Shown here one piece after another: positions 1-58,750 of a stretch of DNA of 64,000 bases. Source of the DNA: Podarcis gaigeae (taxonomy: Eukaryota); NCBI GenBank assembly GCA_964106915.2, contig OZ066922.1. One strand, 5' to 3'. Each line of letters starts with the position of its first letter. Positions within the stretch are counted from its first letter, which is position 1. A model generated the notes under the pieces. It was not told where the DNA came from. It saw only the letters and a program-made list of their open reading frames with translations, and made no database searches. A program made the translations under genes and the position numbers.

Positions 1-2019
1 GTCACCAGAGTGCAGAAACCTACTGCTGTTTCTACAAAGGAAACTTTGAAATCCATCTTCCAAGAAAATATGCTGCAGATTGGGGTGGAGGCATGGTGAA
101 CAAATAAATACAAGGGACTGGAAGGGTAAATGGATGGGAGTCCCTTAGAACTGCTATAGTCACATGGAGGCTTCTCTCCAGATTCATGATCTCCAATATG
201 AACCAGTACAATATGAATTTTGTTTTACGTTATGTACAGATGGAATAATGATAGCAGGTAGCCTAAGAAGATTGTCAGGACATAAAACACAGAATAATAG
301 AATCATAGAATTTGAGATGGTAAAGCTGATAACTAAAACTAATTTATAAATGACAAATGAATGGCATATTATTGTTAGGGATCTAAGGGGATGGGCTCAA
401 ACATACACAATTTGTCTGCAACATAGATTTCCCAATAAGTTGCTTATTACTGTTCAGCCTGTCCTGCTTCTGGCTTGGCCATCCCCAGCACAGCCACCTT
501 CTTACCTCCTCCCCCTAGCAAGGCTCTCCACAGCTTAGGAGGGATAAAAGGGCAAGAACCTCCATCTCTAGTTCCAACAATTTGGCCCCTTTGTTGCTTC
601 CTCTGCTCTGTTTGAACCTGCCAAACCATACCTAATCCTGACAGGGTCTCAGGAACTTTGACATATGTATGTGGTCATACTGAGAACATTGGCAATCCTT
701 ATGCATGAATGCTTGGAGCACTTTAACAATCTGAACTGGCTGTAATATGCCACTACATGTTTATATTCATAAGTAATCAAAATGTTGATTCATAGTATTA
801 AGAATAAGAACTGGCTTCCATCACCAACACTACAAGTTTTCAATTTTTTTGACAGCCCAGAATACCATCTGCCACTGGAGATACACATCTTTGAATCTGG
901 ATGTATAATTCAAGTATAAACTACAGTTCTGTGCATCTGTTTTTAACCTAGCAGCTGTAGATTTTAAAAGTTATACTCCAAAAATGTTATTTTAAGACAT
1001 TGTGTATTAAATATCAATGAGGTTTTTCATTTTGTCGCACCAATTTCAAATAGGTTTCCCCGTTTTCTTCTTCTTCTAGTAATCAGAGCCAGGGAAATAA
1101 ACAATCTGTAGCTCTCAAAACAAGGTTTGAAATTTCATTAGTTAGTATGGCGTATCAGGTAGGCTCATTTATCATTCATTCCCGGAAACAAAGCCATTCA
1201 TTCATTTAAATGAGAGGTTTCCGTACATTACATTGAGGGAAATCACTAAGAAGTGAGATTCTGCTGCTAAATGAGGTGCAGAAGATGTTTTTCCACCTCC
1301 TTATTTCAATAAGAAAAGTAAATCACGGTGGAAAGGGCTCTGTCTTTCACTGTAATTAGAATTCATGTAAACATAAACCTTCTTCAGATGTTTTGGGCAA
1401 AGGCTTGTGGGTTTAGGGAAGGCAACGGATGGGGACATGCACACAAGCCTTCCCCTAATATCCTCATGTGTGCTGAATCCACATTCACACATTGGCCTTC
1501 CTACAAAGTCCACCCTTCCACACTGAAGAAAGTTCAGACGGTGGATTCAAAGCATATTGACATGACTGTGCTTAGAAACTTCTTCATGACTGAGAACCCT
1601 GATAACACAGTGTTTATGATTGCATGGAGGATTATATGCATGTTTAGTTGAACGCATTTTTCAGACTTTCTCTCTTAATGAACAGATGCTTAATGAGCTG
1701 GCAGTGAAGTCAGCACATGCAAGGACACTGGGGGAGAGGGATGAGTGTACTTCCTTACCCCTACTATGTTCAGTTTGCCCGCATGCAGGCAAATGCCTGA
1801 ATATTAATGCATGGCTTGTGAATAGATATATTGTCAATATTTCTCTCTAGTCTTTAGCTAATTTTAAAATACGCTGATTTATATTTTGATTCTTTTAGGT
1901 TAACTTGTTTTTAACACCTGATTTTTATCACTAATTTCAATGTATATTTTATGTAAACCATTTAGAGGTTTTAATGATTAAATGGAATATAAAACATATT
2001 AAAATAAATAAAATAGCCA

Positions 2020-2345
2020 ATGAGGCCACTACCTACCAGATACCAGACATGACAATACCATGTGACACAGATTATTTTAGAAAGATCTAGATCTTTGTAA
2101 TAGTTAGTTGAGTGAGTAATGGGTAAGAAACTGATACATAATCTAGAGAAGATGCAAGTGATGTTAATTAGGAGCTTCCTCAACTCAGTAGGAGTTTCTG
2201 TGCTAGATAGGTTTGCGATCTCTGTAAACTAGAAGTACATCAAATCCTCTCAAGATGTCACCACCCATTTTGACCTGGATGAACAGGAGAACTAGATCTG
2301 AGTGTCATCAGCATACCAATGTCATTTCATTCCAAATCTCAATAA
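2020..2345 (-). mobile_element. Degenerate L2-type LINE RT fragment
   Basis: The minus strand around 2290-2325 translates to HWYADDTQI*FS, the L2-style YADDTQ RT motif, and contains stops. Boundaries are approximate. Confidence 0.5.
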
Positions 2346-2449
2346 ACTTTTGAAAAATGCATTTTAAGCACTTTTATGGTGATTGCTTGCAAAATATTTC
2401 AAAATAATGACAGCAATGTTATTATCTGCCTATTCCTTTGACACTTCTC

Positions 2450-3900
2450 AAAGCAAAAAGGAATTGTCTCCTTAGGTTTCATACCAAGCACACACAAATT
2501 CTACGATATATGAAGAATTCTAATAGTAACAAACAAGTATACAAAAACCCAATTCACATTATGGATACAGTAACCATCAGATAACCCAGTATCTTCCTAC
2601 AAAAAAACCAAACAAATTATTAAGATTCAAATGGGAGAAGCAATAAAATGGCTACCTTGCATAAAGAAGAATCTTGAAAGAAGCTGCTGGCTGGAATTTG
2701 AGGAATCAACTGTCTGTATGTCATCCAGACCCAAAGCAGGAGTGCTGCATTTGTATGCCAAAATATGTATATGGGAAGTTTGCTCTATATTTCACCATTT
2801 AGTCCATTTGTATTGCTTCAGTGCTTTAGTAAACCCCAGTGCTATTTTTCTAGACAAAGAGGTGCTGGAATTCACCATGCACACCTCCCTCATTCTCTTA
2901 GAATGGCAATGGCACCCACCTGAGAGGGGCCGGAACTGAGTTCCGATTGAAAAAGCCCTGGTAGACTATTTTCAGAGTAGTATGTCACAAATGTACATAA
3001 TAAATAATGTAAGCTTATTCTGGACAGTGATAGCACCACAGAGTCATCAGCATACGGGAGCAGAGCAGAGGAATTCTGACAGACAATGGAGGGGCATGAG
3101 CATCAACATTATGGAGACAAGGGGCCAAATAATGTATAAATAAATTAAAAAAGAAAGGAGACTCAAATATAGCCCTGTCTGACACCCTTAGAGCAGGAAT
3201 TAAATTAGAAACCTGTCCATGCTATCCACATCTGAATTGGCTGAATGTTTGGTTATATAGACATCTGATGATGAATAGTAAATGTTTACTCATCAATGTT
3301 TTATATAATGTAGACCACAGCAATTCCCCTGAGAACAATTCAAAGGCATACCTATATCAATAAAGGGAGTGAAAAGCTTACCACCAGAAATAGAACCACA
3401 CTACGCAACTTCACAGTGGTGGTTTATAAAGCAGAATTACATTTGAAAAGGAAGAACCTTTTTGAGTGTGAATCTCCATCCAGTGTTTCCAATTAACATC
3501 CAGTATTTCCTTTTCATAAGCCAGCAGTTCTTTGATTCCCTCTTTGCACTCTAGCCCACACTCAAACACAATAAATATCCCCCCACCCCAGACAAGAGTA
3601 ATGTAACTTTAGCAGTAGGTCAAGAATTAGGTGACTTTCCAGGCAGTGTCATTAAGACCAACCTAAATTGTCTGGGTATAATGAATAACTCTGTCTTAAA
3701 TCCATGGAACTCCATTAACTATTCAATGGCGCCTTTCAAGGTATTAAAACCTACCAGCAATGCAGACGAATTTATATTATATCTTTAAGGCTACAAGAGT
3801 ATTAGGAAGAATGCCAACAAGATGAGCCACCATGTGTTAAGGATTAGCATGCTGTTTGTCACATTCAGATCACCTGACTCTGCTTTGCAAGCACGCTACC
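2450..3900 (-). mobile_element. Ancient RTE/RTE-X-like LINE reverse-transcriptase fossil, interrupted by a hAT MITE
   Basis: Minus-strand remnants include KGVRQGYI(L)SPFFFNLFI (~3135-3195, frameshifted), LLPYADDSVVLSLS (~3020-3065) and IEQ (~2785). There are many stops and frameshifts, and the ends are approximate. Confidence 0.6.
2837..2960. mobile_element. Short hAT-type MITE (124 bp)
   Basis: Termini CAGTGCTATTTTT...AAAAAGCCCTG, with an internal GAGGTGCTGGAA/GAGGGGCCGGAA repeat and a decayed 8-bp TSD gtaaaccc/gtagacta (5/8). Confidence 0.65.
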
Positions 3901-24557: not shown

Positions 24558-24912
24558 GGGATGCGGGTGGTGCTGTGGGTTAAACCACAGAGCTTAGGAC
24601 TTGCCGATCAGAAGGTCGGCGGTTTGAATCCCCGCGATGGAGTGAGCTCCCGTTGCTCGGTCCTTGCTCCTACCAACCTAGCAGTTCGAAAGCAAGTCAA
24701 AGTGCAAGTAGATAAATAGGTACCGCTCCAGTGGGAAGGTAAATGGCATTTCCGTGCACTGCTCTGGTTTGCCAGAAGTGGCTTAGTCATGCTGGCCACA
24801 TGACCCGGAAGCTGTATGCCGGCTCCCTCGGCCAGTAAAGCGAGATGAGCGCCGCAACCTCAGAGTCGGTCACGACTGGACCTAATGGTCAGAGATCCCT
24901 TTACCTTTACCT
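24558..24912 (+). mobile_element. Full-length Sauria SINE (Squam1, lacertid type)
   Basis: tRNA-like head gggatgcgggtggtgctgtgggttaaaccac, B-box ggtttgaatccc, core ccaacctagcagttcgaaagca...gtgcaagtagataaatagg and an (ACCTTT)n tail. Confidence 0.93.
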
Positions 24913-25865
24913 AAACAATAAGTTCATTGAGGGGAAGCTTGGAGGAGAACAACAACCAAGCATGAATTGTGCTTAGGAGAGAAAATAATATTTCTGGCCC
25001 TCCCAACCACTGGCCAGTATGGTCTAACACTGAGGGCAGATGGGCTAAACCTTACAATGGGAAATAGCCCTGAACCCTCTCACAATATATTGGAGGATAT
25101 TCCCAGTCCTGCAAGATCCCATGAGGGCAGCATAAGGAATGAAGCCTCATCTTGCCTTCTCTGCACTCACTTGAACCTCTGCACCACTGGGCATAATTGC
25201 CCTGCATGGAAGTATATATGGAGCAAAGCTACCATTGGCCCTTGCATTCCTAGGATTGGGTGACTATTTACTGGCTGAATTTTCATATCTTATAGAAAGT
25301 ATTAACAGAGCCTGTGCAAATGACTCATGAGTAATATCTAAAGTAATGCCTTCTTTCCTCACCTAGTGCACTGTATTAGTGATGGCCAGCACTCATCAAA
25401 ACTGATAGGGCAGTAGATGGGCCAGAGCCAATATCAAGCAGATCCATGTAAATGTGATTTTGTCCCCATTCTCCAGCCTTCTGAGTTCTGCAAGGGCAAA
25501 AGTAAGACTAAGGACAAGGAAGGTATTGCAGAGTGCTACCCCTGGACTGACTGTAAGTAAGGACGTGCCGAGGGAGGTTGGATAAATTTAAACTTAGGTC
25601 TGTGGGGTACTCCTTCATTTGGTCAAATGGACCAGACTTCCCTGTACTGCATAGATATTTAATAAGAGTGCAGGTGGGAAGGGGAGGAGAGGGGGGTTGG
25701 AGGGAGGGAGAGGGAGAGAGATTGAAGCTTCTTAATAATCTGTCCATATAAGGTTTTTAGAGAGCCTGGTGCGAACTGTATCACCATCTGACTCCACAAG
25801 CCACATGGTACTCAAGCATCACATTGTACCTCTTCTCGGATATTGTTCTTGCAATTCTGATTGCC

Positions 25866-28977: not shown

Positions 28978-29230
28978 CGCCTGCCAACCTAGCAGTTCGA
29001 AAGCACCTCCGGGTGCAAGTAGATAAATAGGGACCGCTTACCAGCGGGAAGGTAAACGGCGTTTCCGTGTGCGGCTCTGGCTCGCCAGAGCAGCGATGTC
29101 ACGCTGGCCACGTGACCCGGAAGTGTCTCCGGACAGCGCTGGCCCCTGGCCTCTTGAGTGAGATGGGCGCACAACCCCAGAGTCTGGCAAGACTGGCCCG
29201 TACGGGCAGGGGTACCTTTACCTTTACCTT
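28978..29230 (+). mobile_element. 5'-truncated, young Sauria SINE (distinct subfamily)
   Basis: Core ccaacctagcagttcgaaagca and (ACCTTT)n tail, with many intact CpGs and a perfect 12-bp TSD tatcctgactgt (28966-28977, 29231-29242). Confidence 0.93.
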
Positions 29231-29341
29231 TATCCTGACTGTGCAACGATTTCATGTGTGCAATGCCTATTCACTAAAAAAGAAAAAAGCGGAGAAGTTG
29301 AGCTGCAGTTGTATGTGAAATATTTATGTCACTTTTACTAC

Positions 29342-31148: not shown

Positions 31149-31316
31149 CCCTATATGCACCTGAATACAATATTCTACTCCTTGAGAGCATATGGTGAAC
31201 ATTAAACTTTTGCCTAATCCCCCCCACAACCTATGCCTTTACTTATTAACATTCAGTATACTTTTTTTTCCAGAGAATGACTGGATCCTAAGTAGCAAAA
31301 TACAATTTAAAGCATC

Positions 31317-31751
31317 TGTAAAGGTTATAGGGGTTGCTCGTGCGTAAGTTGCCGACACTCCTGGCTAGGTTGCCTGGTTAAACCTTTTCTGTCTGGACAG
31401 CCCTTCACTTCGTGGCTGTTTCAGTCACTAGCAGAATCCATCAGTGGGCATTTCTTGAACCTCTTCCAGCAAATAAGTTCTTTGACGCCAAGTCTCCGCC
31501 TACTCTCCCTGCGCGGAAGTCTTCTGCGCAGGGTGGGTGTGGGCAGCGGAGGACCCGTGCTCTCCCTGCTCGTCTCTGGCGAGGAGTCCTGGAGCCCCCT
31601 CACCGATTCCCCCATCTGCCCCCCTTTATCCCTGGTGTTACGCTGATTTCCTTCCCCAGCCAATGAGCTGCCTCTCTCCCTGCTGGGCCCTTCTCCAGCA
31701 TCGCTTGGGAGCCTTGCCTCCGCCTCTGGCTCCGATGGCAGTTCCCTGACA
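31317..31751 (-). mobile_element. Solo LTR (Gypsy-like), 435 bp, young, carrying a 109-aa open frame
   Basis: TG...CA termini, perfect 5-bp TSD gcatc (31312-31316, 31752-31756), CpG-rich. The minus-strand frame is open from 31750 to the stop at 31421. Confidence 0.88.
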
Positions 31752-32017
31752 GCATCTAACTGATTATTTGAGTATCAGAGGTATGGAGTTGGTTCAGTAC
31801 TGAGAGTCCAATTTAGAAAGAAACAGTGAAATGAAGGATGGCAGTTAATATGCAAGTTTGGTTGCATGTAAATAAAATTATTCTAATCTCTTTCAAAATT
31901 ATTGCAAGGAAAACAAATATAAAATAAAATACATAAAATTGTATCTATAAAAAGACAGAGAAGTGTAATGGCATAGTAATAGGTATGAGGGTGACTGATC
32001 ACTGTACCAATAGGTCT

Positions 32018-55072: not shown

Positions 55073-56228
55073 ATCTAGCCATTCAAATGAGAAAGCAGGC
55101 CTGACTGATAGGGAAAAACTTATACAGGAAGTGCAAGCCTTATACCAAGCAATATGTTTGGTATACATCTTCCTTTTGACTAATTTTCTCCTATTATCAT
55201 TTCTAACATTTCCCTATTTCCTGTGTATAGACTGTTACATGGATTGGGCACCCTCAACCAAGCACTTCAACAGCCCTCACCCACAAGCCATAATCAAAAT
55301 GAATGAGGCCAGGCTTTAATTGTGCATGATAGACACTGCCCATTGTCTATGTAGAATGATACAGTTAACCAAAATATATGTAAGGAATGCATATACGTTT
55401 TATCAGTTTTCATGAGTGCAATTTTTAGTAGAGCTATAGGTCAAAATTCACCAAAGCAGTGCCCTGGGAGTTTTTAAGCCATGGTAAGAACATGGTCAAA
55501 CCATTCCAAGTCCTCATTTGAAAGTGGTCAACCCTGACTCATCTGTTGAGATTTTTTATGGAGTATTACAGCCATGACATATCAGTGAAAATGTATAGAT
55601 TTAATGTTCTTACATTTCCATAACACATTTGACAAAGTGCCACATCAGAGATTAACGGTCAACATAAAACAATCACACTCTTGGGGAGGCAAAATGGCAC
55701 ACAAGTTAAACAAGTGATTTAGAGGCAAAAGAAAAAGGAAAGCAATAGGCTGGTAGTATCCATAACTGGAACAGTGATCTGATGGAAGTGCATCCAAGGT
55801 CAGATTTAGAGCCTCTCGATTACTGTGCATGAGATTTTCTGGTTGCCATCAGAACCAAATTCTTCAGCTACATGATAATGATTTGGGGACATATTTAGTT
55901 AAAGTGGCATCTGCTCCAACAAATGGAAGTTTATTTCAGCACAAATAATGATGTGAAATTGAAAGCTAACATTAGATCAAATAGATAGTGTGAAATACAC
56001 AATGCAATGCAATATATTATAGTACTGGATAAATATTAAGAAATATATGAAACAATATACAGTACTGGATGCCTCTTCAAATCAGCTGAAGAATTTGAAT
56101 TGTTCTACCAAAGGCTTTAAGTACAAAAGGCAAGTTACAGGTTACAGGAATGTGCAGGTACACAAGTGGTTAAATGCATGACTAAGTGTGAACTAAGATG
56201 TTGATCTAACAAATGGCATACCTGGATA

Positions 56229-56583
56229 GTAAAGGTAAAGGTAAAGAGACCCCTGACCATTAGGTCCAGTCGTGGCCGACTCTGGGGTTGCGGCGCTCAT
56301 CTCGCTTTATTGGCCGAGGAAGCCGGTGTACAGCTTCCAAGTCATGTGGCCAGCATGACTAAGCTGCTTCTGGCAAACCAGAGCAGCGCACGGAAACGCC
56401 ATTTACCTTCCTGCAATGCGGTACCTATTTATCTACTTGCACTTCATGCTTTCGAACTGCTAGGTTGGCAGGAGCAGGGACCGGGCAACGGGAGCTCACC
56501 CCGTTGCGGGGATTCAAACCGCCGACCTTCTGATTGGCAAGTCCTAGGCTCTGTGGTTTAACCCACAGCATCACCCGTGTCGC
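56229..56583 (-). mobile_element. Full-length Sauria SINE
   Basis: Reverse complement of the 24558 copy, with a (GTAAAG)n tail and TSD catacctggata/catgcccggata (10/12). Confidence 0.93.
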
Positions 56584-58377: not shown

Positions 58378-58750
58378 GGGTAAAAGGGGTAAAGGTATTG
58401 TGGACAGTTAAGCCCAGTCAAATGTGACTATGGGGTTGCGGTGCTCATCTTGCTTTAGGCCAAGGAAGCCAGTGTTTGTCCACAGACAGCTTTCAGGTCA
58501 TGTGGCCAGCATGACTAAACCACTTCTTGTGCAACGGAACACCATGATGGAAACCAGAGCACATGGAAATGCCATTTAGCTTCCCACCGCAGCAGTACTT
58601 ATTTAACTACTTGCACTTGTGTGCTTTCGAACTGCTAGGTTGGCAGAAGCTGGGACAGAGCAACAGGAGCTCACCCCATTGTACGGTATCAAACCGCCAA
58701 CCTTCCCAAGAGGCTCAGTGGTTTAGGCCACAGCGTAACACCTGTTCACC
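58378..58750 (-). mobile_element. Older Sauria SINE subfamily copy
   Basis: Core tgctttcgaactgctaggttggcag, decayed ggtaaa tail and CpG-decayed body. Confidence 0.88.

Follow-up and report, generated by a model that had tools for sequence, protein, structure and literature searches.

Can the LTR of a vertebrate retrotransposon serve as coding sequence as well as promoter? The question is raised by a stretch of 64,000 nucleotides from the Podarcis gaigeae genome (contig OZ066922.1; hereafter the window), the minus strand of which carries an LTR with an open frame of 109 codons. The initial annotation took this frame for a disordered C-terminal tail of integrase which is encoded within U3 and contains a candidate USP7-recruiting motif and a basic segment. 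We have followed the frame through the copies of the same family in the source genome and in related sequences, and we propose what its product might do.

The window copy and its reading frame

The TG start, the CA end and the flanking GATGC duplication identify the element of the window as a solo LTR (Table 1). Rechecking on the sequence confirmed the frame, its peptide, its stop codon (31421–31423) and the position of the DAGEGPS motif exactly as they were first described. It was also correct that no ATG stands at its start; having neither an ATG nor an upstream pol, the solo copy cannot itself make the tail. The frame of a single copy is at chance level, since a frame of at least 109 codons arose in 35.8% of the mononucleotide and in 33.1% of the dinucleotide shuffles (2000 of each kind), and the antisense strand of the window LTR has a 109-codon frame as well. 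Compared with 25 other copies of subfamily A, the window copy has four near-private codon changes, of which three alter the amino acid, a pattern that neutral decay would give. RNA reads from another organism covered both strands of one 3′-LTR copy at low depth; almost no reads fell on the unique flanks of the window copy.

Table 1 Features of the solo LTR in the window
Feature	Position	Strand	Remark
Solo LTR	31317..31751	minus	435 bp, begins TG and ends CA; Tf1/sushi-type chromovirus, subfamily A
Target-site duplication, 5′ copy	31752..31756	minus	5 bp, GATGC (minus strand)
Target-site duplication, 3′ copy	31312..31316	minus	5 bp
109-codon frame and stop	31421..31750	minus	encodes the C terminus of Pol/integrase where the element is full-length
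Codons 9–53	31592..31726	minus	variable disordered segment, indels between lineages; omega 0.70
DAGEGPS	31682..31702	minus	EGPS specific to subfamily A (elsewhere EGTS/AGTS or absent)
Codons 54–70	31541..31591	minus	Ser/Thr/Pro-rich; omega 0.22
Codons 71–100	31451..31540	minus	basic block, bipartite-NLS-like pattern; omega 0.175
Residues 89–100	31451..31486	minus	sole predicted helix; contains LxCW (31466–31477)
Self-primer	31435..31445	minus	11 nt; complements the PBS of full-length copies and marks the predicted 5′ end of the transcript; one CpG transition here
Predicted U3	31446..31751	minus	inferred from self-primer position
Predicted R-U5	31317..31445	minus	no AATAAA, no TATA box

Pol continues into the 3′ LTR

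A search of the source genome with the window LTR gave 3573 first-look candidates, the best 40 of which were scored (96–100% identity) and 30 fetched. Among the fetched copies, four had a polypurine tract (PPT) before TG and two an internal 5′ region after CA, and these internal flanks fix the minus-strand orientation that had been assumed. Full-length copies are about 5.5–5.6 kb long, and their LTR pairs are 96.1–96.6% identical. The Pfam domain order in protein P0002 is RT-RH-IN-SH3_Tf2-chromo, the chromodomain being PF00385 (E 4.5e-9) with HP1/CBX matches, and the nearest named relatives of the element are Gypsy proteins of Podarcis muralis. Subfamily B shares about 75% LTR identity; further searches gave subfamilies C and D and then A2, E, F and G. 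In total, 111 LTR copies were collected, and removal of 13 shared-flank duplicates left 98 LTRs. The lineage tree was confined to these lineages.

The supposition that the frame is entered from upstream, across the PPT, was borne out in seven lineages. In all four A-family 3′ LTRs, the integrase core, SH3, chromodomain and acidic linker run in frame through the PPT to base 2 of the LTR, and in one natural copy an uninterrupted frame of 1075 codons leads from RT through to the last residue of the tail. The end of the chromodomain is in frame with LTR base 2 in 25 of the 29 3′-LTR copies of subfamilies A–D, the other four being broken upstream, and 24 of these 25 junctions are stop-free. The same junction was found in A2, E, F and G, in the Podarcis proteins P0003, P0005 and P0007 and in the Logan protein P0006. 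Within the LTR, the pol frame is open in 26/30 A, 13/18 B, 30/30 C and 20/20 D copies; A and B copies were collected by DNA search, and those of C and D by protein search, which biases the latter toward open frames. The other frames are open in 0–2 copies, save for the antisense in-register frame in C (29/30) and D (20/20), where purine-rich codons probably leave their shadow. Translation in this way would be confined to the 3′ LTR of full-length transcripts and would not extend to solo copies.

No homologue of the tail was found in protein searches outside lacertid-type sequences, and a Pfam search of the LTR-encoded tail gave no match. Three matches were obtained among 1.84 billion representative proteins, one of them real (P0006, a lizard-type element); the other two (E~4e-4) were rejected as low-complexity. 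An ESM Atlas search with the P0003 tail gave no usable match. Neither a vertebrate precedent for pol entering the LTR nor a description of the lizard case was found in the open-access literature searched, although an earlier mention of the read-through may exist.

Self-priming and the U3/R border

In place of a tRNA-type PBS, the 5′ LTR is followed by a sequence that can pair over 11 nt with the LTR itself. The partner site lies at nt 307 in A and B and at nt 280 in C and D, and the match was seen in 13 of 16 5′ LTRs. A compensatory change distinguishes A/B from C/D, and the E copy examined shows another matched change. The pairing is present in both MFE and centroid folds, although the overall z-score is a modest −1.5. 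Self-priming is described as the mechanism of Tf1/sushi elements (PMC4600332, PMC6317226). From this pairing, the transcript is predicted to start at window position 31445 (LTR nt 307), and U3 likely ends at 31446. Contrary to the initial annotation, the frame does not lie wholly in U3: the ~8 codons at its end coincide with the predicted self-primer and start of R, and they are held by RNA pairing. AATAAA and TATA[AT]A were each found in 0/98 LTR copies.

Selection on the LTR-encoded tail

Pairwise comparisons were based on natural copies alone, 88 of the 98 LTRs having uninterrupted tails, and the maximum likelihood codon model on seven such copies, each of which stands for a lineage or sublineage (A, A2, B, C, D, E and E2); post-insertion decay pushes the resulting omega values upward. 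Omega was 0.075 for IN-SH3 and 0.138 for the chromodomain. Within U3, it was 0.222 for codons 54–70 (p 7e-7) and 0.175 for codons 71–100 (p 1.5e-9), and it reached 0.70 for codons 9–53 (p = 0.15 vs 1), where the alignment is uncertain. The pairwise pN/pS of codons 71–100 was 0.19 between A and B (95% CI 0.07–0.37) and 0.15 between C and D (0.02–0.48). In the four off-register frames pN/pS was 1.1–8.5. Differences are concentrated at third positions of the pol frame; the low pN/pS of the antisense in-register frame is an expected shadow of this third-position variation.

Synonymous sites in codons 54–100 have diverged as much as those of the integrase core while the amino acids were kept, and judged by these substitution patterns the segment clearly evolves under purifying selection as protein. 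In the first eight and the last eight codons pS is low, and there the constraint comes from the att end and from the self-primer, respectively. The expected protein-level selection on the tail was thus found for codons 54–100 (omega 0.18–0.22), whereas codons 9–53 are not distinguishable from neutral. It follows from the omega pattern that the LTR doubles as coding sequence, as had been proposed, with just its 3′ half clearly selected at the protein level. Plant CRM elements had already provided examples of read-through as such; what is demonstrated here is its occurrence, with codon-level selection, in a vertebrate self-priming chromovirus. The same DNA thus combines the roles of promoter, self-primer and coding sequence.

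Motifs in and upstream of the LTR

In the AlphaFold model, which has low overall confidence (pLDDT 59, pTM 0.18), the tail is disordered except for the helix of residues 89–100, in agreement with the disorder proposed earlier. Residues 71–101 contain 13 K/R and fit the bipartite NLS pattern, so that the basic segment of the initial annotation stands as a sequence pattern. The features that are conserved best had been overlooked, namely LxCW within this segment, the self-primer and, before the LTR, a pair of FxGF motifs. The tails of lineages F and G are otherwise unalignable but keep the basic-LxCW-basic arrangement, which is the deepest-kept motif encoded by the LTR. The proline-directed kinase sites that had also been noted did not prove to be general: SP at 57 is A-specific, and TP at 71 is present in A–D and E2 and not in E, A2 and P0003.

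Between the chromodomain and the PPT, every lineage has two repeats of a hydrophobic segment followed by 8–9 acidic, S/T-containing residues and FxGF. The second FxGF was present in 25/25 copies, and the first was intact in 23/25. The F, G and F residues are kept through synonymous codon changes and x varies; omega was 0.082 for the first repeat (TIM1) and 0.131 for the second (TIM2). The gaps between the upstream F and FxGF are 8 and 9 residues, and an F/W-xxx-F pattern is conserved in the putative N-terminal helix segment. Departures from FxGF are LEGF or MEGF for the first motif in three Podarcis proteins, and FEGI and FAEF in F-lineage copies. Two such motifs occurred in 0.02–0.05% of linker shuffles, a p value that is optimistic since the motif was noticed post hoc.

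This arrangement resembles that of the TND-interacting motifs (TIMs), described as a helix, an acidic, CK2-phosphorylated linker of 8–16 residues and FxGF, often in tandem (PMC9987994). The TIMs of JPO2, IWS1, MLL1, MED1, ASK, PogZ and JIL-1 share with the lizard repeats a hydrophobic segment, putatively helical in the latter, an acidic S/T linker of 8–9 residues and the tandem FxGF (PMC9987994, PMC6877644), the latter source giving a fly example of such a motif; the lizard motifs differ in being located in a retrotransposon integrase and in being candidates known from sequence. In the account on which we draw, lentiviral integrases are named as hijackers and transposons are not mentioned (PMC9987994). 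No FxGF motif in a retrotransposon integrase was found by searching titles of the open-access literature. PDB sequence searches with tail and FxGF profiles gave nothing significant. Queried by HMMER with these FxGF segments, PDB sequences failed to yield the solved LEDGF-JPO2/PogZ/MLL1/IWS1 fusion chains present among them, which counts against the likeness, although motifs so short and acidic are easily filtered out. Exons for LEDGF and HRP2-like IBD are present in the source genome.

The methyl-lysine cage of the chromodomain, made of three aromatic residues in the HP1-like type I, is degenerate: the third aromatic is missing in 13/13 tail-bearing rows and the first in 12/13. In L120, a control copy of another chromovirus in this genome, the cage is complete (F/W/Y), the FxGF linker is missing and pol stops short of the PPT; the contrast of cage and tail draws on this one control copy read through the chromodomain, as L121 and L122 break earlier. 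L120–L122 represent a separate chromovirus lineage in the same genome.

Function of the tail

We favour, with a probability of roughly 0.6, the reading that the disordered tail is the nuclear-import and chromatin-tethering arm of the integrase of this lizard Tf1/sushi chromovirus. With the pol frame passing through the PPT into the 3′ LTR, U3 encodes the last ~100 integrase residues. LEDGF or HRP2, readers of H3K36me2/3, would be bound at their IBD/TND by the helix-acidic-FxGF pair that immediately precedes the LTR, and CK2 phosphorylation would probably strengthen this binding. In U3, the basic-LxCW-basic helix would act as a bipartite NLS and, like the Ty1 tail, might offer a further site for a partner. 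Together, the short motifs would replace the chromodomain that lost its methyl-lysine cage. That this Gypsy lineage actually swapped a methyl-lysine-reading chromodomain for mimicry of host TIMs, with two FxGF motifs docking on LEDGF/HRP2 together with the LTR-encoded basic-LxCW module, is a more tentative proposal, to which we give somewhat less than even odds. If it is true, the element would achieve a lentivirus-like tethering to transcribed chromatin through a different interface, as a retrotransposon using the cellular LEDGF-binding motif itself. Binding of FxGF to LEDGF/HRP2 would represent an independent route to the host tether used by HIV and a natural case of a chromodomain passing its targeting job to short linear motifs. 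The tethering reading also predicts the landing places of thousands of LTR copies in lizard genomes.

The strongest competitor, which we regard as rather unlikely, is a tail selected solely for nuclear import and spacing (or particle assembly), its FxGF motifs binding another TND protein, an unrelated partner or the element's own chromodomain and having no share in target choice. The bipartite-NLS pattern alone would account for codons 71–100, and TIM-type motifs are reported to bind several TND proteins (PMC9987994); the FxGF motif profile matched just a Numb peptide and glucose-6-phosphate isomerase, which is chance level. However, an NLS needs no LxCW core, yet LxCW was kept across lineages with unalignable tails. 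FxGF is described as essential in all known partners of LEDGF and HRP2 (PMC9987994), and the presence of the tail accompanies the loss of the cage, which speaks for chromatin tethering by the tail.

The EGPS motif

The initial annotation had the tail recruiting USP7 through an EBNA1-like EGPS, a reading that now appears improbable. USP7-TRAF ligands are reported to follow P/A/ExxS, with EGPS as the strongest (PMC6203733, PMC13762809), and the tetrapeptide in subfamily A is what the lizard tail has in common with EBNA1, vIRF1 and DDX24. One of the 26 A copies even reads DPGEGPS, omega of codons 17–25 was 0.07 between A and B, and 11 of the 14 lineage rows checked, among which the tail-less control is counted, show an [E/A/P]G[P/T]S variant that fits P/A/ExxS. 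EGPS itself, however, was found in 25/26 A copies and in none of the 62 copies of B (0/13), C (0/29) and D (0/20), which read EGTS; it is thus not conserved among subfamilies. Lineage E and P0003 read AGTS, and G[PT]S is absent from G, from one F copy and from A2, even though the A2 integrase is ~92% identical to that of A. The position of the motif shifts between A/B and C/D/E, which makes its homology uncertain. The P/A/ExxS motifs that lie in the predicted disordered tail are at chance count (4 vs 3.3, and 3–4 vs 2.7–3.9, in shuffles), so that, in contrast to EBNA1, vIRF1 and DDX24, the lizard motif is neither conserved across subfamilies nor enriched. Its occurrence in A only and the omega of 0.70 of its segment rule out EGPS as the selected feature. 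The motif is a variant peculiar to one subfamily, in a spacer that evolves almost neutrally, and the USP7 idea is better dropped unless binding is shown.

Far less probable still is that the open frame arose incidentally from a GC- and purine-rich promoter and from nucleotide-level constraint: the one-third of shuffles with such a frame, the low pS of the terminal codons and the lineage F frames, which stop near or just before the self-primer, would fit it, but the amino acid conservation against freely diverging synonymous sites and the tail lengths of 70–115 residues, which differ between lineages by whole codons, refute it for codons 54–100, and it is still valid for the terminal codons and perhaps for codons 9–53.

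Comparison with known retrotransposons

The RT-RH-IN-SH3-chromodomain order, the TG..CA ends and the self-priming PBS are shared with the Tf1/sushi chromoviruses of Ty3/Gypsy (GyDB V-clade, e.g. sushi-ichi), as far as these are described in PMC6317226, PMC4600332 and PMC3601003. In contrast to them, the lizard Pol has a tail of ~210 residues past the chromodomain which ends inside the 3′ LTR, its cage is degenerate, and lineages A–D have no AATAAA.

In plants, CRM group A and Bingo elements are established examples of a pol that reaches into the 3′ LTR and carries a targeting segment (PMC3059260, PMC3605345, PMC6317226). A polyprotein reaching into the 3′ LTR is common to CRM group A, with its CR motif, and the lizard element. 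The latter, however, has a vertebrate host, is self-primed instead of primed by tRNA-Met and keeps its chromodomain upstream. No homology of the tail to the CR motif was detected either by Pfam or among the 1.84 billion representatives, in which the one strong match was lizard-type. Self-priming, the retained chromodomain and the absence of detected similarity rule out membership in CRM, and the likeness is likely convergent.

In Ty1, the linker of the bipartite NLS in the integrase tail is reported to bind a host factor (PMC7459421). The C-terminal bNLS/targeting domain of Ty1 integrase resembles the lizard tail in disorder, in the bipartite NLS and in a linker that could bind a host factor (PMC7459421, PMC10050235). 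Ty1 is nevertheless a Copia and not a Gypsy element, and the lizard tail is encoded in U3, so that the likeness is an analogy only.

Other observations

Contig G000:C32 (29.5 Mb, 2% of the genome) carries nine of the best 40 A-family matches (L002, L005, L012, L013, L017–L020 and L030), and all six internal-flanked copies among the 30 fetched are located on it; it is possibly a non-recombining sex chromosome. Between 24.7 and 27.2 Mb of the same contig, 12 loci (L052–L058 and L061–L065) have in common a B-type LTR, an LTR fragment of 43 bp and flanks that resemble LINEs, and they are an amplified composite unit, not independent insertions. The element at L036:4448–10000, with LTRs just 73% identical, is a recombinant between subfamilies. 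P0004, a Podarcis muralis gene model of a phospholipid-transporting ATPase, terminates in the last ~45 residues of the integrase tail, this ending being either an exonised LTR or an annotation artefact. Lineage E is a very young sister family: ~98 of 150 listed SH3 matches (hand count) lie in frames of equal length (1331 codons) on many contigs, and the LTRs of the single pair checked are identical. The window also contains copies of a SINE-like repeat (24564–24919, 28980–29232, 56226–56577 and 58483–58705), which we take to be the Sauria SINE. Next to the Gypsy copy at L031 (oriented 822–3555) there are frames of 601 and 258 codons, presumably of a copia-type element.
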